In this document: positions 31,325-49,172 of the stretch, in pieces
How positions within the stretch are numbered: position 1 is the first letter of the stretch
How the letters are laid out: the number at the start of each line of letters is the position of its first letter
From: Sphingomonadaceae bacterium
GTDB lineage: Bacteria; Pseudomonadota; Alphaproteobacteria; Sphingomonadales; Sphingomonadaceae
DNA length: 64,000 bases
Assembly (NCBI GenBank): GCA_029268145.1
Contig: JAJUHA010000010.1
Location: forward strand, 2,055 to 66,054
Direction of reading: 5' to 3'
Notes under the pieces: model-generated
Told to the model about the DNA's origin: nothing
What the model saw: only the letters and a program-made list of their open reading frames with translations
Database searches by the model: none
Made by a program: the position numbers and the translations under genes

Positions 31325-31789
31325 CTAGCTTCCGGCAAAGACGCCGAGCTCGATCAGGCGTGTCACGATTGCGGCGAGTGCAGCACGCGCCTCGGCATCG
31401 ACCGTCGTTCCGCCGGAAACCGAGGGCGCAGCAGGCACGGCAAGCGCCGGTTTCGGGTCAAGACGCCAGTTCATCCCGTCGAACCTCTGGCACCTTCCGA
31501 TCGCCGCGTTCCACAGCGCAAGGCCCGTGGCGGGCGGGAAGAACCGCCAGCCGGCGGCCGACAGATGGGCAATCTGGCCGTCCCGGCCCGACCATTCGGC
31601 CTCCGCGGGTGTCCCCACCAGCCAGGCCGCGCCAACCGCCGCTCCTGCCGGCGGGCGCAGCAGTCCGGCACTCTCGATCTGGCCGTGCAGAAGGACATCG
31701 ATCCCGGCGATCGCCTCGTTGTGCGTCACATCCTTCTGCCCCTGCCCATGAACCAGCAGGGGCAGGCCGAAACGTTGCGTGCTTTCCAT
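31325..31789 (-). CDS. DUF2793 domain protein (GTA-associated tail-fibre-like)
   Basis: 154 aa. N-terminal RFGLPLLVHGQGQKDVTHNEAIAGIDVLL is the DUF2793 signature. Follows g15, as in many alphaproteobacterial GTA loci. Confidence 0.75.
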   Translation of the reverse strand: MESTQRFGLPLLVHGQGQKDVTHNEAIAGIDVLLHGQIESAGLLRPPAGAAVGAAWLVGTPAEAEWSGRDGQIAHLSAAGWRFFPPATGLALWNAAIGRCQRFDGMNWRLDPKPALAVPAAPSVSGGTTVDAEARAALAAIVTRLIELGVFAGS

Positions 31790-31822
31790 CGCCTGTCTCC
31801 TCGGAAACGCTTCCCAGCCGCG

Positions 31823-33994
31823 TCAGACCGCAAGCATCCGCTCGCCGCTCGAGCGGACGGTGACCGGTCCGTCGCCCTCGGCGATGACCTCGCACCAGAG
31901 CTGGCCGGACCCGGCCGTCCTCGCCTCGGCAACCGCCTCCTCGGGAAGGACGACCTCCTCGCCGAACACCGGCAGCGCGAGCGTCCGTTGCCCCGTCGCG
32001 CCAGTCCACCGCAGCTGGACGCGGTACCATCGCTCCGGCGCCTCGGCAGCGCCGTTCCAGTCGAGGCATGCGCGGTCGCGCCCGGTCCAGGCGAGGGCGA
32101 GGCGATCCGGCCCGGAGGGCAGGATCCGCAGATGGCAGGGCCCGAGCGGCGCCGTCGCCGCCCCCGTCACCCCATGCTCCCGCAGCGTCCCCCCGGCCGG
32201 GTCGCCAGCGCCGGACGCCTGGAACAGCAGCGTCCTTCCGGCCCAGTCCGGCCGCAGGGCAAGCCCCTGGGCTGCCCAGAAAACCACCTCGTGCCAGGGC
32301 GTCCCCGCGAGGTGGAGCCGGGGGGTGGTGCCCAGCCGGCCGCGCAGCAGGCCGGAGAGGATGAGCCTGCCCTCACCGAGCACCGACGCCGACCGGAACT
32401 GGATCAGCTCGTCCCCCACGCACAGGAGACTGGCGCCGTCGAGCACGGCGCGCATGGAACGGGAGAGGATGCGCTCGTCCCCGGCATCGCACCCGATCAC
32501 CAGCCGGTTCGCCTCGTCCCACAGGGTCGAAGGCGCCTCGCCGAGGGGCTCGAGCAGGCTCCCGTTCGCCATGCCCACCCGCAGCGCTCCGAGCGGAGCA
32601 AACATGTCCTCGCCCGCTGCCGCCCACCCCAGGTTCGCGCTGGTCCACCCGTCGGCTGCCAGCGCGAAGATCCGGAGCGCGGGCGGCTCCTCCCCAGACC
32701 AGCCGGTCGGGGCCTCGACGAGGGCAAGCCGGGTCGGCACGAGCCGGTCGGCAGGCGCGGGAAGCACCCGCCCATGGTCGCCGGGCAGATTGGCCTCGCC
32801 ATGCTCGGAAACGGCCTCGCATCTCAGCCGAACCAGACCGGCCTCGACCAGCTTCTCGACCACGCGCCACAGCCGGTGATCGCCCGCCAGGCGAAGCCGG
32901 TCGTTGGGCGCAATCCCCAGCCACTCCCACGAGAGCGCGAGCTCGAGCCGCTCGATGGCAGCGCGGGCATCGAGGAACAGGGTGCGCGCGCTGCGCAGCG
33001 CCTCGGCCGCGCGTGCCGAGAAGGGACCCGAGACGTCGAGCACCCGCGCACCGGCGCGTTCGCCATAGTGCTGCGCGCCGCGCTGGAAGTCCCGTTCGGG
33101 ATCGAGATAGCCGACCCGCGCTCCCGAGACCCGGTCGGCGAGCGCCGCGGTCGTGGGTCGGGGCCCCGCGTCGGGGTCGTCCGCCGGCCTTCGCGCGCCC
33201 AGCTCCTCCTCGGGAATGTTCCACTCCCGGCCCAGCCGCTCGATGCGCACGCCGTCCCGGTCGAGGACGGGTCGCACCGCGAGGAAGTCGCTCAGCGCTT
33301 CCGCGTCCTCGCGCGCCGTCGGTCCCAGCGCCGCATAGCCGCCAAGCCCCGCCGCGGCGATGCAGCGCGCGCCGCCGAGGCCGGACCGGCCCAGATGCTC
33401 GGCGAGCCAGTCCGCCGCCGCGGATCCCTCTTGGTCGGCATGTACCTCGAAGCTGAGCGCGGGGATCCGGTTGCCGAAGGCGGCCAGCGGGAAATCCTCG
33501 AACACGACATGGGCGAGCTGGCGATAGGCCGGGCAGGTGCCAGGCCCTTCGGCGGCAGCGATCAGGGGGTCGAGCGCCTGCTCCGCCACCCCGCGATGGA
33601 CGCGCATGGTGCAGGCGATGCCGAGGGTGCCGTCGGCGTCGCGGATCAGCCGTCCGTCCGCCCAGATGCGCCCGATCCGGGCGATCCGCCGGGACGAGAC
33701 GGCAATGGCAAAGGAGGCCGTGTAGGCCGACCGGTCCGACGTTCCGCCCTTGGCCTCGCCCGATCGGGCGAATGGCAGCGCCCAGATGAGGACCCCGGAC
33801 ACGCGCGAGACGCCATAGACCTCGGGAACCGGGTCGCCATAGGCCGAGGTCGGCGCGCGGAACTCGGGCACCCGGCCGCGGCGGCCGCGCCCGGCCAGCG
33901 CGGCGTCGAGCGCCGAGCCCGCCATCGCCGCCGCGGCCCCGCCCAGCGGCCCGGCCACTGCCTGGCCAATGGTCGAGAAGATGACCGAACCCAT
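31823..33994 (-). CDS. GTA g15-like host-specificity / baseplate protein (short form)
   Basis: 723 aa from ATG 33994, preceded by GAGGAGG. Gly/Ala-rich N-terminus MGSVIFSTIGQAVAGPLGG..., then YGVSRVSGVLIWA and GNRIPALSFEV motifs typical of g15/phage-tail_3 proteins. Confidence 0.75.
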   Translation of the reverse strand: MGSVIFSTIGQAVAGPLGGAAAAMAGSALDAALAGRGRRGRVPEFRAPTSAYGDPVPEVYGVSRVSGVLIWALPFARSGEAKGGTSDRSAYTASFAIAVSSRRIARIGRIWADGRLIRDADGTLGIACTMRVHRGVAEQALDPLIAAAEGPGTCPAYRQLAHVVFEDFPLAAFGNRIPALSFEVHADQEGSAAADWLAEHLGRSGLGGARCIAAAGLGGYAALGPTAREDAEALSDFLAVRPVLDRDGVRIERLGREWNIPEEELGARRPADDPDAGPRPTTAALADRVSGARVGYLDPERDFQRGAQHYGERAGARVLDVSGPFSARAAEALRSARTLFLDARAAIERLELALSWEWLGIAPNDRLRLAGDHRLWRVVEKLVEAGLVRLRCEAVSEHGEANLPGDHGRVLPAPADRLVPTRLALVEAPTGWSGEEPPALRIFALAADGWTSANLGWAAAGEDMFAPLGALRVGMANGSLLEPLGEAPSTLWDEANRLVIGCDAGDERILSRSMRAVLDGASLLCVGDELIQFRSASVLGEGRLILSGLLRGRLGTTPRLHLAGTPWHEVVFWAAQGLALRPDWAGRTLLFQASGAGDPAGGTLREHGVTGAATAPLGPCHLRILPSGPDRLALAWTGRDRACLDWNGAAEAPERWYRVQLRWTGATGQRTLALPVFGEEVVLPEEAVAEARTAGSGQLWCEVIAEGDGPVTVRSSGERMLAV

Positions 33995-34004
33995 TCCCGC
34001 CTCC

Positions 34005-34424
34005 TCAACCCGCCCGCCACACCGAGCGGATCCGCTCGTCCGGGCGCCACGGCCGTTCGACCACCCGGCGCAGCCCGGCATGGGCCTCGATCACGCCGGC
34101 GGCCGTCGCGATGGCGAAATGCAGCTGCCCCGGCGCCGGCTCGCACAGGATGATGTCGCCCGGCTGCCGCCCGGCCGGCGCCACCGCGCGCAGGCCGAGG
34201 CGCCTCAGCCTGACTTCCGCGGCCTCCGGGGCCTGGAACCGCATGCCATGGGTCGGCTCGAACGGAACGCCGAGCCCCGCCCCCTCGAGCGCGAGGAACA
34301 CGAGGCCGACGCAGTCGACGCCCGCCGCCGAACAGCCCTGGGGGCGGAACCGGGTTCCAAGCAGCGCGCGGGCGGCCTCGACGATGCGCTCGCCCGGCCG
34401 CGTCTCCCGCTCAGTCGACACCAT
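34005..34424 (-). CDS. GTA g14-like NlpC/P60 cell-wall peptidase
   Basis: 139 aa. Catalytic Cys context GVDCVGLV and downstream HFAIAT/IEAH. The start overlaps the g13 end. Confidence 0.8.
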   Translation of the reverse strand: MVSTERETRPGERIVEAARALLGTRFRPQGCSAAGVDCVGLVFLALEGAGLGVPFEPTHGMRFQAPEAAEVRLRRLGLRAVAPAGRQPGDIILCEPAPGQLHFAIATAAGVIEAHAGLRRVVERPWRPDERIRSVWRAG

Positions 34425-35241
34425 AGCGCACCAGCGCATCATTGCCCGGAAGGTGCGGCTCGCCGGCAAAGGCCGGTCCGTTCCCGAACCGGCTGCAGCA
34501 GGTCGCGAAGGTCCGGTCGCAGCCCTCCCGGAGCCGCAGCCGCAGCTGCTCTCCGGCCGCGAACTCGGCGCCGATGCCGAGCGTCACGACCGCCCCGTCG
34601 ACGGCGAGCACCGTCCCGTCGAGGCCCGTGAACCGCCCGGAAAGCAGGCGCGCGCGGCCATGCAGGAACCGCGCCCCATCCTCGAGCGGGCTCGCCGCCT
34701 CGACCGCGCGGGGGCCAAGCGCCACGGCATGGATGTCGACGGACCGGCCCGCCATGTCGATTCCGCACACCAGGTCGCCGAGTTCGGCCCGGCAGGTCGG
34801 GGACACTTCGAGCACCCGCCGCCGCGCCAGCGCGGCCAGCGGCGAGAGAAGCTCCATCCGGAACTGCCCGCCGGGCCCCAGCCCCAGGCGGCGGACATCC
34901 CCGATCGTCCCCTCGGTCAGGAAGGTGTCGGGCTGCTCCGGGCGGCGCCAGTCGCAGGCAAAGACCTGCAGCGTCGCGCCCTCCCACCGCCCGGACCGCA
35001 GGTCGTCCTCGCTGATGCGCTCCGAGTCGAGGAACCCCTCGATCGCCATGCTGTCCACGTCGTAGCTGGCCGATGTCAGGATGGCGGAGGGCGTCATGCC
35101 CGCGTTGGGCTCGTAGGTCAGGCCGTCCCGCACCAGCGGGCGGTCGTGGCTGGTGAAGCCGAGCACCAGCCCGTCGGGCCGCATGATCTTCCAGCAGATG
35201 CAGATGCTGCCGAGACCGTCTTGAAACAGCGTCCCGCTCAC
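34411..35241 (-). CDS. GTA g13-like hub protein (DUF2163 / phage BR0599 family)
   Basis: 276 aa from GTG 35241, which overlaps the g12 stop (GTGA). CICWKIMRPDGLVLGFTSHDRPL and the C-terminal CDRTFATCCSRFGN are family hallmarks. Confidence 0.85.
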   Translation of the reverse strand: MSGTLFQDGLGSICICWKIMRPDGLVLGFTSHDRPLVRDGLTYEPNAGMTPSAILTSASYDVDSMAIEGFLDSERISEDDLRSGRWEGATLQVFACDWRRPEQPDTFLTEGTIGDVRRLGLGPGGQFRMELLSPLAALARRRVLEVSPTCRAELGDLVCGIDMAGRSVDIHAVALGPRAVEAASPLEDGARFLHGRARLLSGRFTGLDGTVLAVDGAVVTLGIGAEFAAGEQLRLRLREGCDRTFATCCSRFGNGPAFAGEPHLPGNDALVRYGVD

Positions 35242-35873
35242 GCGAACGCCTCCCGGATCTCGACCAGCGGCACCGAGGGAACCTCGCCCGAGCGGAACCC
35301 CGACATGGAGATCTCCAGCCGGTCGACGGCAAAGCGCACCGGCACGTCGAACCGGTAGCCGCACCGCACCTCGGCCCCGGCGGGCGGCGGCGCGGCGAAG
35401 ACGAGGATTCCGCCGGTCTCGAGCGTCCACCCCGTCTCCTGCACCACGCCGCCCACCGCCACGAGGAACCCGTCCGCAACGGGCCGGGTGATCCGCCGCG
35501 CAAGGCCGGCGAACGCCGGGTCATAGGTCTTCACGACCGGAAAGCGGATCCGCACCCCGTCTCCCACGCCCAGCAGCTGGTCGAACGGGCCGGGGGGCCC
35601 GCCGTCGAGGGCCGAGCTGTTGTCGAGCGGATCCTCGAAGCGGAAGCCGAAGGCCTGGCCGTGGCGGGCCCGGAAGAAGCGGACCAGCGTCCGCAGATCC
35701 TCCTCCGAGCGGACTCCGAGCCCGGCGTCGAACCGCATCAGCGGCTGCTGCCACAGGATGTTCCGCCGCTCGAAGCCGGAGGCGAGCACGGCCACCTCGG
35801 TCAGGAACTCGGGGCCGCCGACGGCGTCGAACCCGATCGCCAGGGGAAAGCGGACGTCGTGAAACGCCTCCAT
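35238..35873 (-). CDS. possible stand-alone g12 (DUF2460) from an internal in-frame start
   Basis: ATG 35873 sits exactly at the canonical g12 N-terminus and is preceded by GAGGAG (…ttcGAGGAGcagtccATG). Confidence 0.45.
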   Translation of the reverse strand: MEAFHDVRFPLAIGFDAVGGPEFLTEVAVLASGFERRNILWQQPLMRFDAGLGVRSEEDLRTLVRFFRARHGQAFGFRFEDPLDNSSALDGGPPGPFDQLLGVGDGVRIRFPVVKTYDPAFAGLARRITRPVADGFLVAVGGVVQETGWTLETGGILVFAAPPPAGAEVRCGYRFDVPVRFAVDRLEISMSGFRSGEVPSVPLVEIREAFA

Positions 35874-37583
35874 GGACTGCTCCTCGAACTGGCCGTGAAC
35901 GACGAGGCCGTCGCGGCGCACCTGCGGCCACGCCCACACGAAGACCTCGGCCGCCCCGCGCCGCGCCGCATCCGCCGCTGCCGCCATGATCCGCGGCCAG
36001 GCCGTGCCGGCATCCTCGGGCCGCAGCACGAACCCCGCGAAATAGTGCATCCCGGCCACCGGATAGCCGAGGCGCGCGGCCACCTCGTCCCAGCCCCGCG
36101 CGCGCCGGTGCTCGTCGCCCGCCGTCACCAGGTCATAGTCCTCGAGCTGGAGGACATCGAAGGCCGGGCGCGCCCAGCCGACGGGCATGTTGGCGCGGAT
36201 GAGCTCGGGGTCGTCGGGGTCGAGCACCTGCGGCGAATAGAACAGCAGATGGCTCCGGAACCCCTCGCCGGCCGCCGCCCTCGCGGCGTCGACCAGCGCG
36301 GCCGTCGAGGCCGCAAGGCGCGCGCCCAGCCAGTCGAGGAAGGCGATCTCCGCCGGGGACTTCGGTCCGCGGATGTCGTCGATCGCCGGCGGCGGGCCGC
36401 CCCGATCGGCCACATGGGCGGCAACCGTCGCCGCGTCGTAGAAGCAGGGGCGATGGTCGGGCCCGACCCACCACCAGGGCTCGCCGACCTGGAACTGCGG
36501 CTGCAGCCCCGCCGCCGCCGCGATCGAGACGAACTCCGCCGCCACCCGGCCGAGCCAGGCCATGGCCTCCGCATGCGTCGGCGACAGCAGCGCCGAGGGC
36601 GGAGTCCATCCGGTCAGCCCGCGCTCGCCATTCGCCTTGCGCTGGACCCAGGCCGAAGGCGCATAGGCGTCGAACAGCTCGTAGGAGAGGGAGAGGATGA
36701 GCGCGTAGCCCTGCGCGGCGAGCGCGGACGCCAGCGCGCGATGCCAGGCCCGCGCCGGCCCGTTCAGCTCGCCTGCGGGCGGGACGGTATAGCGTTCCCC
36801 GTCCCAGGCCAGCGCCGGGTAGTGGCTCATCCCGACATAGTGGGTCACCGTCCCCCGGTAACCGAGCGCCAGCCACTGCTCGACCAGCCGTTCCGGCGCC
36901 TGGTTGTAGCTGTCGTCATAGCCGCTCGCCAGCCGCAGCGGGTGCTCGGGCAGGAAGGCGTCATTGACCGGGATCGACGCATGCGCCCCCGTCACCTCGA
37001 TGTTCCGCAGCTCGACCCAGGTCTCGACCGGCGCCGGCAGCGGGCCCTCCGCGTCGGCGTGCCCGTCGGGCATCAGCGAGATGAACATCCGGTCGATGTC
37101 GTGCGGATGCACCGGGTCGGCCTCGGCCGGCAGCAGGAACCCGCCTTCGAGCGCGCCGAGATCGAGCCGGATGCGCGCCTCGGTCGGCGTCCCCTCGGCA
37201 TAGTTCCACAGCCGGACATACCAGGTCCGCGGGTTCCCGGCCGCATCCCGCCCCTCGATGGTGAGCGTCGGGCCATTGACGGCGTCGAGCGGGCGCAGGC
37301 CCGGCCCCGCCACCCAGTCGAAGGCGAGCGTGCAGCCGGCATAGTCGCGGATGGTGCGGTAGGCGCACCGCGGGTGGGACCAGCGGTCCTCGGATTCCCA
37401 GATGAGCCCGGCCAGGTCCCGGCGGGCGAGGAAGGCAAGGTCCACCCGGAGCAGCCGCGGCGCCGGGTTGGTGAGGGCGGCCATCATCGGCCGCGGGAAA
37501 TCGACCGTCCACAGCCGCGGCGCGAACCGCCTCACCGCGTCCTGGCGAACCGGGTCGCCCGGCCCTGCGAAATGGTGCAGCAC
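35238..37583 (-). CDS. 781-aa fusion: unknown 570-aa N-terminal module plus GTA g12 distal tail protein (DUF2460)
   Basis: Uninterrupted ORF. GTG 37583 lies 4 nt after the tape-measure stop. The last 211 aa (MEAFHDVRFPLAIGFDAVGGPEF...SGFERRN...) are a complete DUF2460/g12. The N-terminal part has no counterpart in reference g12. Confidence 0.7.
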   Translation of the reverse strand: MLHHFAGPGDPVRQDAVRRFAPRLWTVDFPRPMMAALTNPAPRLLRVDLAFLARRDLAGLIWESEDRWSHPRCAYRTIRDYAGCTLAFDWVAGPGLRPLDAVNGPTLTIEGRDAAGNPRTWYVRLWNYAEGTPTEARIRLDLGALEGGFLLPAEADPVHPHDIDRMFISLMPDGHADAEGPLPAPVETWVELRNIEVTGAHASIPVNDAFLPEHPLRLASGYDDSYNQAPERLVEQWLALGYRGTVTHYVGMSHYPALAWDGERYTVPPAGELNGPARAWHRALASALAAQGYALILSLSYELFDAYAPSAWVQRKANGERGLTGWTPPSALLSPTHAEAMAWLGRVAAEFVSIAAAAGLQPQFQVGEPWWWVGPDHRPCFYDAATVAAHVADRGGPPPAIDDIRGPKSPAEIAFLDWLGARLAASTAALVDAARAAAGEGFRSHLLFYSPQVLDPDDPELIRANMPVGWARPAFDVLQLEDYDLVTAGDEHRRARGWDEVAARLGYPVAGMHYFAGFVLRPEDAGTAWPRIMAAAADAARRGAAEVFVWAWPQVRRDGLVVHGQFEEQSMEAFHDVRFPLAIGFDAVGGPEFLTEVAVLASGFERRNILWQQPLMRFDAGLGVRSEEDLRTLVRFFRARHGQAFGFRFEDPLDNSSALDGGPPGPFDQLLGVGDGVRIRFPVVKTYDPAFAGLARRITRPVADGFLVAVGGVVQETGWTLETGGILVFAAPPPAGAEVRCGYRFDVPVRFAVDRLEISMSGFRSGEVPSVPLVEIREAFA

Positions 37584-37587
37584 GGTC

Positions 37588-38148
37588 TCACGGCTCCGCG
37601 CGCTGGAGCGCGCGCCTGACGGCGCGTGCCACCTGGTTTCCGGTCTGCGCCATGAAGGCCGGGCGCGTGCGCGTCGCCGGGCCGAGGTTCACGGCCAGGT
37701 TCACGACCTGCATGCCCCGCCCGCGGCCGGGCTCCACCCGCCCGCTCGCCGTCGGCACGAACAGCTCGGGCCCCTGCTCGCCCACCACATAGGCCCGCCC
37801 GGGCGCGACCGGCCCGCCGGTCGCGCGGCCGGGCAGCCCCGCGGCACCGGCAAGCCCGGCAAGCCCGGCGAGGAGGCCGCCGGGCCCTCCCGCCCCGCCG
37901 AACTCGATCCTGAGCGCAGCCGCCGCAATCTCGCCCAGCGCCCGTGCGGCCACCCGGGCGAGATCCTCGAACTCCACCCGTCCGCTCCGCGCGGCCCTGG
38001 CCAGCGCCGACTCGATCCCGCGCCCGGCCGCCTCGGCCCCGGCACCAAGGCCGGCCTCGAGCGACTGGCGCATCTCGGCGATGTCGCGCTGGAACGCCTC
38101 CATGTCGGCGCGCACGGCAACCGAAACCTCGTCAAACCCGTCAGCCAT
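37588..38148 (-). CDS. GTA g11-like short tail tape measure protein
   Basis: 186 aa, Ala/Gly-rich helical. The C-terminal YVVGEQGPELFVP motif is typical of tape-measure proteins. Position between chaperones and g12. Confidence 0.75.
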   Translation of the reverse strand: MADGFDEVSVAVRADMEAFQRDIAEMRQSLEAGLGAGAEAAGRGIESALARAARSGRVEFEDLARVAARALGEIAAAALRIEFGGAGGPGGLLAGLAGLAGAAGLPGRATGGPVAPGRAYVVGEQGPELFVPTASGRVEPGRGRGMQVVNLAVNLGPATRTRPAFMAQTGNQVARAVRRALQRAEP

Positions 38149-38335
38149 CGGGAAACTCCCGCATCAGTCGCTCGAGATCGGCTGCGACACCGACGGCCGG
38201 GGTGGTCCCGAACCGTCCCTCGATCGCCAGCCGCAGCTCGGCGAGCGTCGCGTTCCAGAAGGTGTCGGGCGTCCATCCGAGCACGCCCGTCGCAACCCGC
38301 GCGGCCAGCCGCGCGAAGACGAGATAGCTCGTCAT
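38141..38335 (-). CDS. GTA g10.1-like small tail assembly protein
   Basis: 64 aa; ATG overlaps the g10 stop (ATGA). LGWTPDTFWNATLAEL motif. Confidence 0.65.
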   Translation of the reverse strand: MTSYLVFARLAARVATGVLGWTPDTFWNATLAELRLAIEGRFGTTPAVGVAADLERLMREFPDG

Positions 38336-40647: not shown

Positions 40648-40683
40648 CTCGGTCTCTCCCACTTCGAAAGGCGCCGGCAGCGG

Positions 40684-41052: not shown

Positions 41053-41073
41053 GATGTCCTCTCCATGCTTGGG

Positions 41074-41094
41074 CCGGCGCCGCAGGGGCGCCGG
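41074..41094 (-). terminator. GC hairpin CCGGCGCC-gcagg-GGCGCCGG immediately after the 957-aa gene
   Basis: 8-bp perfect stem read from the sequence. No U-tract. Confidence 0.35.
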
Positions 41095-41109
41095 GTCGGG
41101 CGCGGCGTC

Positions 41110-43983
41110 TCAGTCCAGCGGCGGCCGCGCCCGGCGCTCCTCCGCCGGCACGCGGCGGGTCCGGGGAGCTGCCCCGGTCGGGCTCCCGCCGGGCGTGAAC
41201 CCCAGGGCGGCGGCAAGGCCGCGCACGGCCTGCCGCGCGGCATCCGCCACCACCGAGAGCAGCAGCCCCACGCCGGCGGCGCCTGCACCATGGGCATGGC
41301 GGGCCCCCGCCGGGTCGAGCATGGCCGCCGGCGGCGCAACCGGCTCGCCCTCGAGCGCGCCTGCCGCCCAGCTCGCGCCGGTCCTCAGGTTGCCGGCCAG
41401 GTCGGCGTCGATCTGGGCCGTGGTCGCGCGATCGAGCAGCGGGCTCCCCGCCATGGGCCGATAGTTGCCGAAGCCGGCACCGCCGTCCGCCACTGCGGCA
41501 GGCGCAGTGAAGCCGGGCCAGGCGATGCCCTCTGGCGTCGGAGTGCCGAGGTTCGGGTAGGGCGAGACGATGGACCTCAGACCCCAGTTCTCCGGCACGC
41601 AGCCGTTGAGCGAGCCGATGTAGGTCCGCCAGCCCTCGACATTGCCCTCGTTGAGGTGGCCGAAGTAGATCTGCCAGCCCTGCACCTGGTGGCCGCGATA
41701 GCCCCGGGTCGAGGCCGGTTCGCCCATCGCGGCCCGCGCCGTCGAAGTGTTCGAATCGAACATGGCCTCGTGCTTCGAGACCAGCTTGTCGAAATAGTTG
41801 TTGGCCACCCGGCAGTGCGCGTAGCTGTTGAACCGCGTGAAGCTGCCCGCCTGGTCGATCGGGTTCGGCTGGTTGTAGCAGTGGTTCGCCCGGTCGCCGA
41901 CGATGGTGTTGTGCTCGATGATGAGGCCGCGCACGTCGAGCTCGGGGTTGTTGATCTCGCCAATGGCATAGGCCGGAGCCGAGCCGCCGCCCGACTTCTC
42001 CAGGATGTTCCCGATGACATTCTGCCGAACGATCTTCAGCCGCCCGTCTGCCGCCGCCGTGTAGGTCACGGGGAAGAAGGCCCAGCCGGATACGGCATGC
42101 GTCCCCCGGCAGTCGTTGAACCACCAGTGGATGTCGTGGCGGCTCTCCTCGGTCGAGCCCGCAGGGATCGCGGGGTTGCCAAGCGGAAGCAGGGTCGTCC
42201 CTGCGCCCGTCTTGACGCAGTTGACCACCGTCGGGCTCGCGAAGCCCTTGCGGCTCCGCACCGACCGCAGCAGCAGGGCGGCGCCGGATGCGCTGTGCCA
42301 CCCGGTCGAGACGAGATCCTCCTCGATGTTGGTCGCGAAGATCCGCATCGTGCTGGCCGCCGGCGGTGACGAGCCGAACCCGGAAAGCGGGCTCCCGGGG
42401 TTGTCGTCCTCGATGCGGACCCCCTGGTCGAACCAGAGGATCCCGGAGCTCCCGGCGACCGGGAAGGCGACGGCGCGCATCCGGAAGCGGATTCCCGACA
42501 TCCGCACGCGCCACGCGCCGCCGAAACTGTGCGAGCCCGAGGCCGCGCCGACGAGATGGGTGCGGTCGATGCCCTCGCCCCGCACGTTGAGATAGGTTTC
42601 GGTCGAGGTCGCCCCCGAAAGGACGGAGAGCGTGCTCCAGGCATGCGCCACGGGCGTCGCCCCGCCCAGCAGGAAGATCTCGAACCCGTCGTGCGCGCTG
42701 GTCTTGGTCGCGGTGAAGCCATTGGCATTGTCGAGCCCGCGCGCCAGCCGGGTCAGCATCGCGCCGGCCACGGTCAGGTTGGCGCAGCGGTCGGCAACCG
42801 GCACCGCCAGCGCCCTGGCGCGCGCCTCCTCGGGGGTGTTGCCAAGGCCCACCACCTGCTCGGCGACGTTCCGCGACGGGGCGAAGCTGTTGTCGGTCCG
42901 CCCGCCCGCCGGGTCCACCACCACGCAGGCGTAGCGGTAATAGGTCGAGGGCGCATGCCCGAGCGGGTTGGTGCCACCGCCCGGGTTCGCCTGCGTCGTG
43001 TAGCCGTAGCGCGCCCCCGTCCGGTCGAGCGCCAGCATGAGCGGCTGCTCGGCCTCGATGCGGACCGACTGCTGCCCGGCATTGGCGCCCGGGTGCAGCA
43101 GCGCGGGCGAGGCCGTGGCCGGGTCGTTCGCGCTGCTGGTGTGGCGCGGCGCCCCGAACCACGGATAGACAGTCGCGTGCAGCGCGATGAGCCCGTCGGT
43201 CAGATAGGTCCCCGGCGCGCCCTCCACCTCGAAGCTGACGCTGCCCGTCCAGCAGCGCACGCTGTCGCCGTAGCGGGTCGAGGTGCCGATGGAGAGCCAG
43301 GATGCCACCGAGCGATTGGTGCCGTCGGTCGCGATGATGCGGATGCCCGCCACGCCCGAGGCGCCCTCGGGAAGCACATGGGAAGCCAGCATGTCCACCG
43401 TGGTGCTGTTCGCAGGCGCGCCCGGCGTGCCGCGGATGGCCTCGTAGGGCACGGTGATCCAGCGGAACGACGGCACTTCCAGCGCCACGGCCGAACTGTT
43501 GGTCGCGCTCACCACCTGGTCGGCGGCGGCGTCGGGCCGCCAGCCCGCCCTGAACAGCACGGTGACCGTCTCGCCCGGCGCCACCGGCTTGTGTAGCATC
43601 AGGCGGATGCTGCGCTGGCCGCCGCCCTCGTCCACTTCGCCGAGCGGGCGGTTGAGCGGCCGGAAGGTCGGCGCATCAGCAAAGGGGCCGGGCTGGAGCG
43701 AGGTCGGCTGGCCCGGCGCCCAGTCCGGGTAGCGGTCGGGGCGCACCTCGTGCGCCACCACCTCACGCGAGCGGGAAGCCCCGACAGCCTGCGCGCCCGA
43801 GCGGCTGAAGCCCGGGCCCGACACCGTCGCCACCACCCGCGCGCCCGCCTCGGTCTGGGTCTCCGGGCCGCCGGCACCGGCGAACAGGGCGAAGTCGGCC
43901 CGCACCGAGGGCGCGGCAGCAGCGTAGGTGACCCTGAGCGTCCAGCCGTCCGCCTCCACCACCGCTGCTGAGACGACCGTCAT
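41110..43983 (-). CDS. 957-aa right-handed parallel beta-helix (spike/depolymerase-like) protein, inserted module gene 1
   Basis: ATG 43983 starts a long ORF on the cluster strand. Beta-helix-like rungs (IIEHNTIVGDRANHCYN, CRVANNYFD). The family-typical C-terminal motif YRPMAGSPLLDRATTAQIDADLAGNLR...AAGALE is followed by an Ala/Gly-rich tail. Confidence 0.7.
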   Translation of the reverse strand: MTVVSAAVVEADGWTLRVTYAAAAPSVRADFALFAGAGGPETQTEAGARVVATVSGPGFSRSGAQAVGASRSREVVAHEVRPDRYPDWAPGQPTSLQPGPFADAPTFRPLNRPLGEVDEGGGQRSIRLMLHKPVAPGETVTVLFRAGWRPDAAADQVVSATNSSAVALEVPSFRWITVPYEAIRGTPGAPANSTTVDMLASHVLPEGASGVAGIRIIATDGTNRSVASWLSIGTSTRYGDSVRCWTGSVSFEVEGAPGTYLTDGLIALHATVYPWFGAPRHTSSANDPATASPALLHPGANAGQQSVRIEAEQPLMLALDRTGARYGYTTQANPGGGTNPLGHAPSTYYRYACVVVDPAGGRTDNSFAPSRNVAEQVVGLGNTPEEARARALAVPVADRCANLTVAGAMLTRLARGLDNANGFTATKTSAHDGFEIFLLGGATPVAHAWSTLSVLSGATSTETYLNVRGEGIDRTHLVGAASGSHSFGGAWRVRMSGIRFRMRAVAFPVAGSSGILWFDQGVRIEDDNPGSPLSGFGSSPPAASTMRIFATNIEEDLVSTGWHSASGAALLLRSVRSRKGFASPTVVNCVKTGAGTTLLPLGNPAIPAGSTEESRHDIHWWFNDCRGTHAVSGWAFFPVTYTAAADGRLKIVRQNVIGNILEKSGGGSAPAYAIGEINNPELDVRGLIIEHNTIVGDRANHCYNQPNPIDQAGSFTRFNSYAHCRVANNYFDKLVSKHEAMFDSNTSTARAAMGEPASTRGYRGHQVQGWQIYFGHLNEGNVEGWRTYIGSLNGCVPENWGLRSIVSPYPNLGTPTPEGIAWPGFTAPAAVADGGAGFGNYRPMAGSPLLDRATTAQIDADLAGNLRTGASWAAGALEGEPVAPPAAMLDPAGARHAHGAGAAGVGLLLSVVADAARQAVRGLAAALGFTPGGSPTGAAPRTRRVPAEERRARPPLD

Positions 43984-44061: not shown

Positions 44062-45234
44062 TCAGCTTGCCGAGAAGCGCATCAGCTTGATCGCCTCGCT
44101 GTTCACCAGCGCCCCGCCCACGCGCCGCGTCGCGTAGAAGTGGACGAACGGCTTGTTCGAGAAGGGGTCGCGCAGCACTGCGGTCTCGGTCCGCTCGGCG
44201 ATCGTGTAGGCCGAGCCGAACTGGCCGAAGGCGATCGCCAGCGCGTTGGCGGCAATGTCGGGCATCGCGTCGGCCTCAATCACCGGGTAGCCGAGCAGCG
44301 TCGCCGGCTGGTCGGCGGCAAGCGCCGGCTGCCAGATGAACTGGCCGGCCGAGTCCTTGAACTTGCGGATGACAGACAGCGTGTTGCTGTTCATCACCCA
44401 CACCGCGCCCTGGCGATAGGGGGTGCGCAGCGCATGGACGAGGTCGATCAGCCGGTCGGCGGGGTTCGCCGCCGGGAAGGCGCCCGCCGCCCCCGAGGGC
44501 AGATACTGCACCGTCCCGAACGGCCGGGCCTGGTCGGCGGTGGTCGCGACCGGATAGGTCAGGAAGCCCTTGGGCTGGTCGGTCCCGCTCCCGGTCACGA
44601 AGGCGATGCTCTCGGCCCGGGCGAAGTCGAGCGCGATCTCGTTGGCCAGCCAGGTCTCGATGTCGAACATCGCATCGTCGAGCATCGCCTGGGTCGCGGC
44701 CGGGTTGGCATAGAGTTCGCCCATCGGGATCGCGACTTCCTGGAAGGTCGGAGTCCCCGTCTCCGGCCGCCCCGCCGCCTCGCTCACCCAGCCGCTGGCG
44801 AAGCCGCCCGTCGAAACCAGACGGCGATAGCTGCTGCTCCCCACCTTCACCACATTGGCAACCGTCCGGATGGGGGAGATCGACCGCAGGGTCGATTCGA
44901 TCAGCTGGTCGAGCTCGCGCGGCACGGCGACGCCGCCGTCGCCGGGCACCGTGCCCTGGAAGCGCTTCAGCTCGAAGCCGCCCTCGATCCCCTTGCGCAG
45001 ATACAGGTCGGCGAAGGCCGCGCGCTCCCCGTCGCGGGCGGCTGCCGCGCCGGCAAGCGCCGGGCGGGCCCGCTCCACCGCCTGGCGCCGCAGGGCCGCC
45101 AGCTCGGACTTGATCGCCTCGACCGAGGCCCGCATCGTCGCCAGCTCGGCCGGGTCGGTCTCGCTCGTCACATAGGCAGGCGCGCTCGCCATGTCCGCCG
45201 GCGCAACCGCGTCGGCCTTGGTCTCGTAGGTCAT
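44062..45234 (-). CDS. GTA g5-like major capsid protein (HK97 fold)
   Basis: 390 aa from ATG 45234 (MTYETKADA...). N-terminal coiled delta-like region, then VPRELDQLIESTLRSISPIR, FQEVAIPMGELYA and PYRQGAVWVMN, all typical of HK97-family capsids. Confidence 0.9.
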   Translation of the reverse strand: MTYETKADAVAPADMASAPAYVTSETDPAELATMRASVEAIKSELAALRRQAVERARPALAGAAAARDGERAAFADLYLRKGIEGGFELKRFQGTVPGDGGVAVPRELDQLIESTLRSISPIRTVANVVKVGSSSYRRLVSTGGFASGWVSEAAGRPETGTPTFQEVAIPMGELYANPAATQAMLDDAMFDIETWLANEIALDFARAESIAFVTGSGTDQPKGFLTYPVATTADQARPFGTVQYLPSGAAGAFPAANPADRLIDLVHALRTPYRQGAVWVMNSNTLSVIRKFKDSAGQFIWQPALAADQPATLLGYPVIEADAMPDIAANALAIAFGQFGSAYTIAERTETAVLRDPFSNKPFVHFYATRRVGGALVNSEAIKLMRFSAS

Positions 45235-45289: not shown

Positions 45290-45694
45290 TCAGGGCAGGA
45301 TGGCGGTGACACGCGCGTGCGCGTGCATCGGCAGGGTCACCACCGAACATTCGAGAAGCTCGAGCTTCAGGAGCTCGCGCCCGCCGCCCGGAACCGGGCG
45401 GGCCTGCTTCACCCGGTAGCCGAACGAGAGCCCGTCCACCGCGCCGGCGCGCAGAAGCGCCAGCGCATCGCGGCCGTCGCGGCAATCCGGGCTGATCCGC
45501 GCCTCCATCCGGAGGCCCGCGGCATCCTCGACCAGGCTCAGCACCCGGCCGATCGGCCGCTCCACGTCATGCTGCCACAGGAGGGGCACGTCGGCCCGGC
45601 TGCCGGCGAAGGCGCCGCGGCGCACCAGGTCGCCCGACCGGTCGGGCGTGTCGAACCGGCTCACGTAGCCGCGCACCAGCACGCCGTCGCTCAT
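45290..45694 (-). CDS. GTA g4-like prohead protease (HK97/S78 family)
   Basis: 134 aa from ATG 45694, which overlaps the portal stop (ATGA). GYVSRFDTPDRSGDLVRRGAF...WQHD...GLSFGY...ECSVVTLP. Confidence 0.8.
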   Translation of the reverse strand: MSDGVLVRGYVSRFDTPDRSGDLVRRGAFAGSRADVPLLWQHDVERPIGRVLSLVEDAAGLRMEARISPDCRDGRDALALLRAGAVDGLSFGYRVKQARPVPGGGRELLKLELLECSVVTLPMHAHARVTAILP

Positions 45695-46824
45695 GCCGCC
45701 TCTCCGCCTGCCACGGCGCCCGCCCGCGGGCCCCAGCCGAGCAGCTCGCGCTTCTCGTCCACCGTCAGGAAGTCGGCCGCCGCCACGTGCCGCCACAGCG
45801 CCTCCCGGTCCGACCACAGCGCCGGGATGGCATCGAGGTCGGGCTCGATCCGCACCCCCGGCCACCAGCGGCCGAGATGGCGGGAGAAGCCCTCGGTGAT
45901 CCGGCCGAGCAGCGGCAGGACGGTCAGCCGCCACAGCGCGACATTGGCCTGGGCATAGTTGGCGTAGGTCGCGTCGCCCGGAAGCCCGAGCAGCATGGGC
46001 GGGACGCCGAACGCCAGCGCCACTTCCCGCGCCGCGGCCTCGCGGGCGCGGCCGAAGTCGAGCTCGGCCGGCGTCAGCGCCAGCGACTGCCACCTGAGCC
46101 CGCCCTCGAGCAGCATGGGCCGGCCGGCATTGACCGCGCCCTGGAAGGCGCTCTCCACCTCCTCGCGCAGCCGCTCGAACTGCTCGGCCGAAAGCGGCGC
46201 CCCGTCCTTCGTCTCGTGCACCAGCGCGCCCGAGGGCCGCGCCGCATTGGCGATGAGCGATCGGTTCCACCGCGCCGCCGCGTTGAGCAGCGCCACGGCG
46301 TCGGCGGCCGCGCACAGGCAGCCCTGGCCGAGATGGTCGTCGAGCGGGTTGACCAGCTTCAGGTGCAGCAGCGGCGGCCGCTCGCCATCCCACTCGGCGG
46401 GGAAGCGCTGGGTGCGGGTTCCGGCCCGGTGCAGGTAGGCGCGGGGCCAGCCGTCCGCGTCGAGCTCGATCTGGACCCGCTCGGGGCGGAGCGCCCAGGC
46501 CTCGGCGGGCTGGCCGAGATGGTCAAGCCCGAGGCCCACATAGGCATTGCCGTGGAGCAGCAGATGGGTGGCGATCGTCTCCCTGAGGCCGGGCGTCAGC
46601 AGCGCGGCGGCCGGATGCTCGCGCCCCGCCACCAGGAGCGGGGCGTGGCCCAGGCTCTCCGCCACCAGCCGCACGGCGCGCTGGGCGATCGCGTTGCGGC
46701 CATAGGCCTCGTCCACCCGCGCCTCGTAGGAGGCCGGCGGCTCGGTCGCGCCGCTGCGCAGCCCGGCGGCGGCCGGGCGCGGCAGGCCCATCGCCTTCCT
46801 GGCCATGAAGGGCCAGCGCATCAC
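45691..46824 (-). CDS. GTA g3-like portal protein (HK97 family)
   Basis: About 377 aa; GTG 46824 or ATG 46821. YGRNAIAQRAVRLVAES, LLHGNAYV and the later REVALAFGVPPMLLG are typical portal motifs. Confidence 0.9.
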   Translation of the reverse strand: MMRWPFMARKAMGLPRPAAAGLRSGATEPPASYEARVDEAYGRNAIAQRAVRLVAESLGHAPLLVAGREHPAAALLTPGLRETIATHLLLHGNAYVGLGLDHLGQPAEAWALRPERVQIELDADGWPRAYLHRAGTRTQRFPAEWDGERPPLLHLKLVNPLDDHLGQGCLCAAADAVALLNAAARWNRSLIANAARPSGALVHETKDGAPLSAEQFERLREEVESAFQGAVNAGRPMLLEGGLRWQSLALTPAELDFGRAREAAAREVALAFGVPPMLLGLPGDATYANYAQANVALWRLTVLPLLGRITEGFSRHLGRWWPGVRIEPDLDAIPALWSDREALWRHVAAADFLTVDEKRELLGWGPRAGAVAGGEAA

Positions 46825-47021
46825 CGCTGCTCCGGCCTGGCCGGCGGAGCAGGCGTGGGCCCGGTCGCGATCAGGCCACCGCCCACGATGAAGGAAATGG
46901 CCTGGGCAAGGCTCATCGCCTGCATCGGGTCGCTTCCCACCGCCACCGCGATCATGGCGAGCCCCACCCAGGTCGAGCTCTCGCGCGCCCGCTGGCGCAG
47001 CCAGCAGAGAAATCGTGCCAT
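46821..47021 (-). CDS. small 2-TM membrane protein between terminase and portal genes
   Basis: 66 aa; ATG 47021 is preceded by AAGGA. Two hydrophobic segments (TWVGLAMIAVAVG, AISFIVGGGLIATG) and a charged C-terminus. The stop overlaps the portal start. Confidence 0.5.
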   Translation of the reverse strand: MARFLCWLRQRARESSTWVGLAMIAVAVGSDPMQAMSLAQAISFIVGGGLIATGPTPAPPARPEQR

Positions 47022-47041
47022 GGCCTGTCCTTCGCTTGGCT

Positions 47042-47118: not shown

Positions 47119-47127
47119 TTGTCAGTG

Positions 47128-48534
47128 TCAGATGGCGCGCAGCGCCGGGGCGGCCTGTTCGGGCGCCAGCATCAGCTCGGTCAGCGCCCACACCAGCGCA
47201 TCGGCCCGGTCGGGCGAGCTGCCGGGGCCGCGATAGGCCCCGCCGGTGATGAGCCCGCACAGCTGGTCCTCGAGCTCGGGGAAGGGCCGGGCATGGGCCA
47301 CCAGCCCGCGGGCATAGAGGGTGGCCACAGGTTCGGCGCGCGCCACCTTGCCGACGCTTGCGCGCACCGGCTTCAGCGGCAGCCTGCGGTGGCCTCCGGC
47401 CTCGAGCACGCTCTCGACCATCCGGCCGCCCTGGTTCACTTCCACGACGATGCAGTCGGCACGGTGCTGGGCATGGGCGTCGACCACCGCCTTCGCCCAG
47501 TCGTCGGGCGTCGCGTCGGGCACGCTCCGGTCCGAGAGCACATAGGCCCTGCCGCGCGTGTCGAGCCCGGCGACGATGATGCCGCAGGTGCCCGGGCCGG
47601 CCGGCGGGTCGACTCCCACCACCACCCGCGCCAGCTCGCCCTCGGGCGCCATCCGGCAGCGCTCGAGCGCGTCCCGGCTCCACAGCGCGCCCTCGATCCG
47701 CTCGAGCAGCTCGCCGGCAAGCTCCTGCCGGCCAAGCGCCGTGCCGCCATAGCCCGCCTCCATGTCGGCGAGGTAGGAGGCGGGCAGGTTGATCCGGTTG
47801 TCGAAGGTCGAGCCGCGGGTGAGCACGACTCCCTCCATCCGGGTCAGGCTCCGCAGGAAGGCGGTCGGGCGCGGCGTCGTCGTCACCACCACCCGCGGCC
47901 GCACGCCCAGCCTCAGGCACATCCGCAGATTGTCCCAGGCCTCGCGCGGCCGGCTCCAGGCGGCGATCTCGTCGCACCAGGCGGCATGGAACTGCGGCCC
48001 CCGCAGCGCGTCGGCTTCGCCGGCCGAGAACAGCGTCGCCATCGCGCCATTGGGCCAGTGCAGCTCGCGCTTGGAGCGCAGGAACAGCGGCCGGTTGCCC
48101 TCGACCGCCGTGCCGAGGATCCCGGATTCGCCGCGCACCATCACCGCCTCGGCGTCATGGAGGGTCGTCCCCACCAGCGCAATCCGGCAGCCGGGCGTGG
48201 TCAGCGCCTGCCGGTTCACCCACTCGGCACCGGCGCGCGTCTTGCCGAAGCCGCGCCCGGCGAGGATGAGCCACACCGCCCAGTCGCCGGCGGGCGCCAG
48301 CTGTGCCGGGCGCGCCCGGAACCGCCAGTCGTTCAGAAGCCGCCACTGGTCCTCCAGCGGCACGTCGGCAAGGCACGCCGCGCGCGCCTCGCGCGGCAGG
48401 AGCGCCAGGCGCTCGATGAGCGAAAGCCCCGAGCGCGCGCCACCCGCCGCCACGTCCCCATCGCCCACAGGCCGTTCTCCGCCGCGACCCCGCCGGCTCC
48501 CCACCGGATCCGAAAAGGGCGCCGCCGCGGACAT
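47128..48534 (-). CDS. GTA g2-like terminase large subunit
   Basis: 468 aa from ATG 48534. Walker A LILAGRGFGKTRAG; nuclease-half motifs VGVDPP...IIVAG. The track ORF starts at TTG 48672, but that leader has poor GC3 and a W/R-rich sequence. Confidence 0.9.
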   Translation of the reverse strand: MSAAAPFSDPVGSRRGRGGERPVGDGDVAAGGARSGLSLIERLALLPREARAACLADVPLEDQWRLLNDWRFRARPAQLAPAGDWAVWLILAGRGFGKTRAGAEWVNRQALTTPGCRIALVGTTLHDAEAVMVRGESGILGTAVEGNRPLFLRSKRELHWPNGAMATLFSAGEADALRGPQFHAAWCDEIAAWSRPREAWDNLRMCLRLGVRPRVVVTTTPRPTAFLRSLTRMEGVVLTRGSTFDNRINLPASYLADMEAGYGGTALGRQELAGELLERIEGALWSRDALERCRMAPEGELARVVVGVDPPAGPGTCGIIVAGLDTRGRAYVLSDRSVPDATPDDWAKAVVDAHAQHRADCIVVEVNQGGRMVESVLEAGGHRRLPLKPVRASVGKVARAEPVATLYARGLVAHARPFPELEDQLCGLITGGAYRGPGSSPDRADALVWALTELMLAPEQAAPALRAI

Positions 48535-48668
48535 CGGCTGACATCCGCGGCGGCGACAGGAGCCCCGGCCGGTCCGGATTCCAGACGGGCCAGGGCGTTC
48601 GGGAGGGGAGGCGCTCCAGACCCAATTCCGGAGCGTGGCCGAATCTCTATACCATACCGTCACGCTTG

Positions 48669-49172
48669 TCAAGCATAGATTTGACCATTTTGGTTCTCAT
48701 AATGCGCCGCAAGCCGATCCAGCGCCAGCCCCAGCACCAGCTTGCCCGATCGCACCGGCCAGCCGAGGCCGCGTTCCGCCGCCTCCAGCCCCTCGCCGGC
48801 GCACACCACGCGCCACAGGATGTCGGACAGCCCGGGCCCCACGGCATCCATCGCGGCGTGAAACCGTGACCGCGCCGCCGCGCTCCCCAGGGCCTGGGCT
48901 TCGGCGCCCCGGCCGCAGCCGCGGTCGCGCGGCGCCGCCAGATCCCAGCGCATGGTCACCCGCGCCCCCAGCTGCGCGGCGTGGTGGTCCCGCCGCAGCC
49001 GCTCGCCCGCCGCGACCTGGCGCCCGTCCAGAAGCCTGCGCCGGAACAGCCAGTCGAGCGGCGATTCGTCGAGGTTCACATGCACCAGCTGCCGGTCCAC
49101 CGCGTCCGCCGGCGCCAGCCGACGCCTGCCGATGGTCCGATTCGGATACGCCTTCGGGTCGATCACCTGCAT
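48669..49172 (-). CDS. hypothetical protein at the g1 (small-terminase/regulator) position of the GTA cluster
   Basis: 167 aa; ATG 49172 is preceded by GAGAGGAG. The AGERLRRDHHAAQLGARVTMRWD motif and a C-terminal HTH-like segment (GWPVRSGKLVLGLALDRLAAHY) possibly indicate a DUF6456-type protein (from memory, unverified). Confidence 0.55.
   Translation of the reverse strand: MQVIDPKAYPNRTIGRRRLAPADAVDRQLVHVNLDESPLDWLFRRRLLDGRQVAAGERLRRDHHAAQLGARVTMRWDLAAPRDRGCGRGAEAQALGSAAARSRFHAAMDAVGPGLSDILWRVVCAGEGLEAAERGLGWPVRSGKLVLGLALDRLAAHYENQNGQIYA

Follow-up and report, generated by a model that had tools for sequence, protein, structure and literature searches.

A probable gene transfer agent locus with linked candidate regulators and candidate recognition modules in a Thermaurantiacus-like bacterium

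The structural genes and their chromosomal setting

The DNA analysed here is a 64,000-nucleotide stretch of a Sphingomonadaceae contig (the window). It contains a contiguous block of minus-strand genes at 31325–49172 (17,848 bp, 96.5% coding), which we assign, with a probability of about 0.8, as the head–tail cluster of a chromosomally fixed gene transfer agent (GTA) resembling that of Rhodobacter capsulatus (RcGTA), in a Thermaurantiacus-like bacterium (Sphingomonadales, Sphingosinicellaceae). About half of the genomes of Sphingomonadales are predicted to carry RcGTA-like clusters. The window has a G+C content of 72%, which makes raw lists of open reading frames (ORFs) useless (152 ORFs of at least 60 aa per 25 kb). 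Genes were called by frame analysis of third-position GC (GC3) and each was checked against libraries of hidden Markov models (HMMs). The tight packing described in a first-pass annotation, made from the letters of the sequence, is borne out: starts and stops overlap at seven junctions by 1–14 nt (five of them by 4 nt) and the other gaps measure 4–215 nt.

HMM searches detected homologues of all of g2–g15 and of g10.1, contiguous and in RcGTA order, as that annotation had proposed. The comparison with GTA families it had suggested gave significant matches, several above curated cutoffs; the RcGTA-derived models that pass are TIGR02215, TIGR02217, TIGR02218, PF11836 ‘GTA-gp10’ and PF23666 Rcc01698_C. 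When the concatenated proteins were searched against the PDB, the RcGTA structure (6TBA/6TB9) was the top match for the capsid (Rcc01687, 8e-90), the portal (Rcc01684, 9.5e-78), the hub (6tba_7A, 4e-35), the N-terminus of the ‘megatron’ baseplate protein (2.6e-31), the tube (Rcc01691, 2.7e-24) and the terminator (Rcc01690, 3.7e-7). Every family listed earlier is present in the order given, although a DUF6456 gene, a 66-aa ORF and a three-gene insert had been omitted. The block had been taken to start with the large terminase gene; its first ORF is instead the DUF6456 gene (48669–49172), assigned below as a GafA/GafZ-type activator rather than a structural gene.

All genes of the block lie on the minus strand. 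The large terminase gene (TerL, g2; 47128–48534; PF03237 1.4e-23, PF17289 8e-14) encodes the Walker A motif GRGFGKT, as previously read. Its true start is probably the GTG at 48453, which would give a protein of about 441 aa; relatives have 435–452 aa. A conserved hydrophobic ORF of 66 aa (46821–47021) separates TerL from the portal gene. It is 83–85% identical to its counterparts in the related loci L001 and L003, has a ratio of non-synonymous to synonymous substitution rates (dN/dS) of 0.16–0.26 and encodes 64–72 aa in relatives; it matches no family, its similarity to GTA_holin_3TM being sub-threshold (E 0.025). The portal gene (g3; 45691–46824; PF04860 4e-69; TIGR01537 156 bits against a cutoff of 112) is followed by those of the S78 prohead serine protease (g4; 45290–45694; PF04586 7.7e-29) and the HK97-fold major capsid protein (g5; 44062–45234; TIGR01554 362 bits, 4e-86). 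Beyond the insert lie the genes for the head–tail adaptor (g6; 39839–40372; TIGR02215 98.7 bits against a cutoff of 39; PF05135), the head completion or stopper protein (g7; 39485–39820; PF05521 9e-12), the tail terminator or completion protein (g8, formerly DUF3168; 39061–39456; PF11367 9e-22) and the tail tube (g9; 38649–39056; TP901 family, PF06199 1e-36). The canonical g7 is kept in this lineage; a published survey has it in 7 of 55 Sphingomonadales genomes.

The tail assembly chaperone region (38141–38652) consists of g10 (38332–38652) and g10.1 (38141–38335), with matches to PF11836 ‘GTA-gp10’ (1.5e-17), PF09550 (1e-14) and the TIGR02216 rcc01693 family (1.3e-7). It precedes a short tape measure gene (g11; 37588–38148), whose reported length of 186 aa is correct; the protein matches phrog_30701 (7e-48) and the C-terminal parts of tape measure PHROGs. 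The distal tail protein (g12) forms part of a larger fusion, treated below. The baseplate hub (g13; 34411–35241; TIGR02218 170 bits against a cutoff of 80.5) combines PF09931 (formerly DUF2163) and BR0599. An ORF at 34439–35524, also considered for the hub, was rejected because GC3 shows its frame to be wrong; 34411–35430 is the right ORF. The g14 product (34005–34424) is by its sequence probably an NlpC/P60-type cell-wall peptidase: it matches PF00877 below the cutoff (E 7.6e-4) and the minor tail protein family phrog_329 (1e-7), and its orthologue in the related locus L005 carries PF00877. The g15 product (723 aa; 31823–33994; PF13550) is a half-size megatron-like baseplate protein. Its match to NF048004 (278 bits) covers only positions 1–205 of the 1299 in the model, and that to Rcc01698 (1304 aa) in the PDB only the N-terminal 190 or so residues; in place of a full-length megatron of about 1300 aa it retains the N-terminal ~200 residues, Phage-tail_3 and the Rcc01698_C domain (PF23666). 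The last gene encodes a DUF2793 protein of 154 aa (31325–31789; PF10983 1e-22; tail-fibre PHROGs), probably a short tail fibre. Its PDB match, 8gtc_S (4e-5), belongs to an entry (8GTC) in which homologues of the g12 distal tail protein and the g13 hub are also present.

The first-pass annotation had found no integrase, replication or lysis genes in or beside the block, and scanning the ORFs of the window against Pfam (a few lack a match) gave the same result: neither an integrase or recombinase nor a replication gene or lysis cassette was detected. Nor were att-like direct repeats found flanking the block, so that none of the parts of a prophage which would be contiguous with structural genes (integrase, att, replication, lysis) is seen just outside it. 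The sole tRNA in the window, 12 kb from the cluster, is a tRNA-Leu(GAG) at 19086–19172 (minus strand) predicted by ARAGORN; an Rfam scan at gathering thresholds reported no tRNA match. The ORFs scanned outside the block are housekeeping genes or have no Pfam match. One flank contains genes for glutamate synthase, P450, glutathione S-transferase (GST), thioesterases, rRNA methylase, DNA glycosylases, KAS III, DPP-IV, TelA, M16 peptidase, α/β-hydrolase and OmpA. The other contains dcd, UPF0262, PAPS reductase, sulfite reductase, PBP1 and sugar-nucleotide enzymes. The neighbours ompA and dcd had been named correctly, with the correction that a gene for an XRE-type helix-turn-helix (HTH) protein intervenes between the block and dcd. 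An N-acetylmuramoyl-L-alanine amidase gene (Amidase_2 with PG_binding_1; 11008–11793, minus strand) lies 20 kb off and encodes the sole endolysin-like enzyme in the window.

The position of the cluster is the same in Thermaurantiacus tibetensis (loci L001/L008) and in more distant relatives. The order sulfite reductase–DUF934–PAPS reductase–UPF0262–dcd–HTH–DUF6456–cluster–OmpA is shared by L001/L008, L003/L004, L005 and L009, and across these four syntenic lineages (T. tibetensis and three others) the 957-aa protein of the insert is 66%, 58%, 42% and 36% identical. The internal architecture recurs in Polymorphobacter fuscus and Sandaracinobacter neustonicus, as does the downstream OmpA gene. 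All 21 genes are intact, with no internal stops, in every relative (at least 6 diverged genomes). Nei–Gojobori dN/dS values are 0.06–0.28 against the closest relative, L003, and below 0.56 in all comparisons, figures to be taken as approximate, since dS comes close to saturation in a genome so rich in GC3. Constraint is among the strongest in TerL, portal and capsid (0.10–0.16); the 957-aa protein and the megatron evolve fastest. The G+C content of the cluster (73.3%) shows no anomaly against its flanks (71.6% and 72.4%). The locus is thus fixed in its chromosomal position, host-like in composition and under purifying selection.

The capsid–adaptor insert and the distal tail fusion

Three genes, encoding 957, 122 and 96 aa, occupy 3.6 kb (40372–43983) between the capsid and adaptor genes. 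The product of the last of them (about 91–96 aa; 40372–40662) belongs by sequence to PF23148, the family of the GP4 gp77 fibre–tail adaptor (1.4e-29, 102.8 bits against a cutoff of 27), and matches 8jou_D in the PDB (1e-4). In podophage GP4, 15 copies of the 93-aa Ig-like gp77 encircle the head–tail adaptor and anchor the fibres (PMC11445570). The protein here is likewise small and Ig-like, close in length to gp77 of this Ralstonia phage (about 93 aa; PDB 8JOU), whereas the particle would be siphovirus-like and GTA-type. The Gp77-like gene is directly upstream of the adaptor gene and overlaps it via TGATG, an arrangement that fits a collar around the adaptor anchoring fibres. From this homology, the adjacency to g6 and the co-occurrence of the genes, we infer that the Gp77-like and 957-aa proteins sit at the neck.

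The 957-aa accessory protein (41110–43983) is a candidate fibre or spike. It has no sequence match in Pfam, PHROG, NCBIfam or the PDB and is unrelated in sequence to any of 50,697 phage records; its family comprises 297 representative clusters and lacks a Pfam model. An AlphaFold2 model, for which 74 diverse sequences from an HMMER search of the representatives were used, has a pLDDT of 87.9 and a pTM of 0.88. The model predicts Ig-like beta-sandwich domains (about residues 1–345), a helical linker, a beta-helix-like (pectate-lyase-like) body (about 430–885) and a disordered tail. Foldseek searches with the model returned Ig-like domains in the PDB and, in BFVD, weak similarity to a 946-aa protein of an uncultured phage, to alginate/pectate-lyase proteins and to tail fibres. 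Homologues often match only the N-terminal 310 or so residues or only the C-terminal part, which fits modular fibres; the dN/dS of the protein is 0.28–0.46. A profile scan of the genome contigs with a narrow alignment of this protein gave 2 loci. We note that one AT-rich patch of the block (41739–41809), the sole one within coding DNA, falls inside this gene. The 122-aa accessory protein (40684–41052) has no family match and is 52–80% identical in relatives. It is present in 26 of 89 loci, each time alongside the Gp77-like gene; a comparison of the two proteins showed that they are not paralogous.

The interval between capsid and adaptor genes was measured in 57 fusion-bearing loci that hold both genes. 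Intervals of 0.1–0.4 kb have no insert, as in RcGTA, and those of 1.5–2.4 kb often include a Gp77-like gene. At 3.3–3.8 kb the module is the same as in the window (957-aa type), and at about 4.4 kb a different large gene accompanies the 122-aa and Gp77-like genes. This variation, from 0.1 to about 4.5 kb, points to the junction being a variable cargo site for neck-fibre modules.

The second addition is a 781-aa fusion (35238–37583) in which the distal tail protein g12 is joined to an N-terminal module resembling the sheath of coliphage N4. The DUF2460 gene of the first-pass annotation does encode that domain, which forms only the last quarter of the protein (about residues 573–777; PF09343 3e-71; TIGR02217 205 bits; Rcc01695 of RcGTA in the PDB, 8e-48). 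Residues 17–559 comprise NCTSP_N and a TIM-barrel, by sequence members of the N4-type sheath families PF23844 (2e-82, 275 bits) and PF23845 (3e-144, 481 bits; cutoffs 27), and the module matches N4 gp64 (9lc0_M, 2e-50) and gp65 (3e-12) in the PDB (9LC0/9YF4). In N4, gp64 and gp65 form a six-fold non-contractile sheath, gp65 being the receptor-binding protein that recognises NfrA (PMC13434306). The N4 proteins are two and separate, and are anchored at a podovirus head–tail adaptor; here the tail is of siphovirus type and its hexameric distal tail protein carries a single, covalently fused module of about 570 aa, and no gp65-length partner, and hence no separate gp64/gp65 heterodimer, was found within the cluster. 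Given the hexameric partner, six copies of the module should ring the tail tip. A receptor- or glycan-binding device is a plausible role for it.

The three-domain architecture is present in all of the best 120 of 4,900 fusion homologues, which come from Thermaurantiacus, Sandaracinobacter, Sandarakinorhabdus, Polymorphobacter and other Sphingomonadaceae. Among the 50,697 phage records no fused g12 was found, except on one 5-kb fragment. The fusion has at least 596 relatives in IMG/VR. The 80 retrieved are on contigs no longer than 26 kb, mostly 13–19 kb and so of the size of the cluster; none of these contigs is of phage-genome size.

Regulatory genes and regulatory DNA

Regulatory genes do adjoin the structural ones: the locus carries both a repressor-like XRE gene and a gene of the GafA activator family, in itself a GTA-like trait (compare RogA and GafYZ of Caulobacter). 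The XRE/Cro-CI-type HTH protein (187 aa; 49300–49863, plus strand) is encoded divergently from the cluster and matches PF13560 (1.7e-11), PF01381 (1e-9) and a ‘transcriptional repressor’ PHROG (1e-11); no S24-like C-terminal domain was detected in it. Its gene lies between the block and dcd, at the same position in L001, L003, L005 and L009, with a dN/dS of 0.07. In a further locus, L090 (XRE gene at 5348–5911), the host neighbours are EamA, an aldehyde dehydrogenase and TatABC instead of dcd, yet the arrangement HTH–DUF6456–TerL is kept. The HTH gene therefore appears to be part of the GTA locus and not of the dcd neighbourhood, which moves the upper boundary of the locus to 49863. The functional unit probably extends from there through DUF2793 (31325).

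The first gene of the block encodes the DUF6456 protein (165–167 aa; PF20057 2.7e-43). Annotations give the name DUF6456 to GafA, which activates RcGTA directly, and to its homologues (PMC9638019; PMC9765227); on this ground the alternative assignment of this gene as g1, the small terminase (TerS), was rejected. Outside Rhodobacterales the similarity to GafA is limited to its C-terminal part of about 18 kDa. The counterpart of this part in Caulobacter, GafZ, is an anti-terminator whose action is confined to the GTA cluster (PMC11150451). The DUF6456 protein has the size of the GafA C-terminal/GafZ part, and its gene adjoins TerL on the upstream side in every relative examined. Taken with the literature, this identifies it as a homologue of the GafA C-terminal or GafZ-type GTA activator or anti-terminator; it belongs to the GafA family through this part only. 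A homologue search with the protein returned only stand-alone proteins of about 165 aa, with no full-length GafA to align. PDB sequence searches with the HTH and DUF6456 proteins were uninformative.

Three AT-rich patches (below 52% GC over 60 nt) occur in the block, and two of them are the XRE/DUF6456 intergenic region and the leader between DUF6456 and TerL. The intergenic region, 127 bp long, contains the palindrome TGCCAATGTGGCA (49199–49211, minus strand), which is conserved in 4 of 4 aligned relatives and occurs once in the window against 0.11 expected by chance. We regard it as a candidate operator. The non-coding leader (48601–48672, minus strand), a candidate cluster promoter with a 5′ element, is conserved between the DUF6456 stop codon and TerL, well above the neighbouring sequence in alignments of relatives that include L009. 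Its parts, in order, are TTGACA, which overlaps the stop codon of DUF6456, a 15-nt spacer, TGgTATAGA (an extended −10), a hairpin (CGCTCCGGA-N6-TCTGGAGCG, 9 bp, with one compensatory base-pair change) and the C-rich tract CCTCCCCTCCC. An Rfam gathering scan of the whole window gave 0 matches and hence none for the leader. A scan for consensus promoters and terminators gave nothing useful; the 15-nt spacer of the leader lies outside the 16–18 range of that scan.

Interpretation and comparison with known agents

In Caulobacter the RogA repressor controls gafYZ, the activators of the GTA of that organism (CcGTA) (PMC9632790; PMC11150451). The logic may be shared, with an HTH repressor above a split-GafA activator and a GafZ anti-terminator at the promoter and leader of the cluster, and in both organisms the cluster starts with the terminase gene. 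By this analogy the XRE protein is a candidate repressor of the activator gene: it would bind the palindrome in the intergenic region and keep the GafZ-type gene off, much as RogA does with gafYZ. Once repression is relieved, the GafZ-like protein would act at the promoter/leader that starts at its own stop codon, and would drive or anti-terminate one long transcript from g2 to DUF2793. The systems also differ. Neither rogA nor gafYZ is linked to the cluster in Caulobacter, and RogA has an S24-like C-terminal domain there, whereas here no GafY-like gene stands beside DUF6456, the −35 element is near consensus and the functions are assigned by analogy.

TerL, portal, protease and HK97 capsid would build small heads and package host DNA by a headful mechanism, with no TerS in the cluster. 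The adaptor, stopper, terminator, tube, chaperones and 186-aa tape measure would give a tail that is short and non-contractile, and the tail tip would consist of the distal tail protein (Dit), hub, peptidase, half-size megatron and DUF2793 fibre. Each Dit subunit would bear the 570-aa N4 sheath-like (gp64/gp65) module at its N-terminus; at the neck the Gp77-like adaptor would anchor the 957-aa fibre, built of Ig and β-helix parts, and the 122-aa protein would probably be involved as well. These two lineage-specific devices could alter the recognition of target cells. We hold the individual regulatory and structural placements tentatively, none of them at better than an even chance. The scheme as a whole, a self-contained GTA locus with linked XRE repressor and GafZ anti-terminator and a particle re-armed with two podovirus-derived recognition devices, including exchangeable Ig/β-helix fibres, is speculative and may well fail in some part.

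RcGTA itself (6TBA/6TB9/6TE9) shares with the locus the g2–g15 order, the short tape measure and the pair of chaperones g10/g10.1; it too is chromosomal, lacks integrase and replication genes and has a GafA-family regulator. The locus in the window departs from it in lacking g1 and in having a GafA homologue of only the C-terminal 18 kDa or so, located directly upstream of g2 and not elsewhere in the genome. Further differences from RcGTA are the attached divergent XRE gene, the 3.6-kb three-gene insert between g5 and g6, the 570-aa N4 sheath-like extension at the N-terminus of g12, a g15 of 723 rather than 1304 aa and the DUF2793 fibre gene inside the cluster. The architecture is non-canonical, as had been claimed, relative to RcGTA; for this bacterial family it is the norm.

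Several observations weigh against reading the locus as a GTA, or limit how far that reading can be taken. We know of no Sphingomonadales GTA that has been shown by experiment to make particles or transfer DNA, and the activity of this locus is argued by analogy from RcGTA and CcGTA. Between DUF6456 and TerL, an interval of conserved non-coding DNA, neither an ORF nor a family match for TerS/g1 was found; g1 is reported as not broadly detectable outside Rhodobacterales. Neither a GafY/DnaA-like N-terminal partner nor a holin or endolysin was identified within the window, so essential parts would be elsewhere or absent. The promoter-like element comes close to the sigma-70 consensus and differs in this from the degenerate, activator-dependent −35 described for Caulobacter; the regulatory model may therefore err in detail. 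The closest phage relatives of the capsid protein (from Pseudomonas and Salmonella phages) are about 50% identical to it, hence the head genes by themselves are not diagnostic. To these can be added the g14 match, which falls under the Pfam threshold for NlpC/P60, the megatron, which at 278 bits fails the NF048004 NCBIfam equivalog cutoff of 800, and the near-saturation of dS.

The genes are phage-derived, and the absence of integrase, replication and lysis genes, the missing TerS and the shortened megatron would also suit a functionless structural module left by a cryptic, decaying prophage. Such a remnant is very improbable: no internal stops break the 21 ORFs, which are intact across at least 6 diverged genomes and have dN/dS of 0.06–0.5; the chromosomal position is the same across genera; coding density is 96%, with overlapping starts and stops; and the regulatory DNA is conserved. 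Neutral decay would not keep such features at 36–60% protein divergence. Slightly less probable still is that the block is the late region of an active or inducible temperate phage with its early genes outside the window, or a phage-satellite-like element. A CI/Cro-type HTH gene does stand at one end, many relatives are classed as viral by IMG/VR, and modules such as the N4-like and GP4-like ones are typical of lytic phages. Yet the flanks of 31 kb and 15 kb consist of housekeeping genes syntenic with those of relatives, with no att repeats, no adjacent tRNA and a composition matching that of the host; the insertion site is identical in lineages whose synonymous divergence is saturated, and the IMG/VR relatives end at about 13–19 kb, the size of the cluster.

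The rival we take most seriously, though it too is improbable, is a domesticated particle selected for another purpose, either bacteriocin-like killing or as a glycan-degrading or adhesion device. Purifying selection in the absence of direct evidence of DNA transfer is compatible with it, as are the fast evolution of the recognition proteins and the unusually large share given to putative glycan-binding or -degrading modules (NCTSP TIM barrel, pectate-lyase-like β-helix). Against this, TerL, portal and capsid are fully conserved, and their low dN/dS (0.10–0.16) argues that DNA packaging is still needed; tailocins usually lose their head genes. A GafA-family regulator, of the kind found in proven GTAs, is moreover linked to the cluster. 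The first-pass preference for a GTA over a prophage is thus upheld by the RcGTA homologues, the lack of phage lifestyle genes, the host-like GC, the purifying selection and the fixed position. That the cluster is RcGTA-homologous, vertically inherited and selected we consider nearly certain; that it functions as a DNA-transferring GTA is, by analogy, the probable but less secure part of the assignment.

The type of element is already known. RcGTA-like clusters of Sphingomonadales have been described by bioinformatics (PMC6821227, PMC7360931, PMC9765227, PMC9836097); studies of them (Kogay et al. 2019, 2020, 2022; PMC6821227, PMC7360931, PMC9765227) report that gene content varies and that there are ‘additional genes of unknown function’, and gafA homologues are reported in all GTA-bearing orders (PMC9765227). 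No published description of the Gp77-like/fibre module, the N4-sheath–Dit fusion or the HTH–gafZ linkage was found in the literature searched. Among Sphingosinicellaceae and related genomes, both the fusion and the linkage of the regulators are common. As the element is of a known type and its architecture common in public genomes, the practical value of the finding is moderate. With a candidate repressor, a GafZ-type activator, a promoter/leader and the structural operon together within 18.5 kb, the locus offers a simple handle by which a sphingomonad GTA might be switched on. It also suggests that GTA particles have not stayed exact replicas of RcGTA, having a variable cargo site between capsid and adaptor and a podovirus receptor-binding module captured by the distal tail protein; the insert and fusion changes bear on who can receive GTA-borne DNA. 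If the scheme is true, the target range of Sphingomonadales GTAs would be set by modular, swappable fibres, and the switch would be testable by a one-gene deletion.

Two further features lie on the DUF2793 side of the cluster. An OmpA-family outer-membrane protein with a β-barrel and an OmpA domain (30023–31240, minus strand; PF00691, PF13505) is encoded 84 nt downstream of DUF2793. An OmpA-like gene follows DUF2793 by 94–219 nt in 22 related loci, among them distant ones that are only 35–47% identical. The linkage appears deeper than ordinary local synteny, and the OmpA gene may thus be functionally tied to the GTA locus; its protein might serve, for example, as receptor or in release. The gene is a conserved neighbour and a possible member of the unit. 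Further out in the same flank, the GST gene (9382–10119, plus strand) is split by an in-frame TGA at 9724–9726 (…LQWLF*QMAGLGPMMGQ…), with GST_N before and GST_C after it. The stop falls where a Trp codon would presumably be expected; a nonsense mutation or an error in sequencing may account for it.

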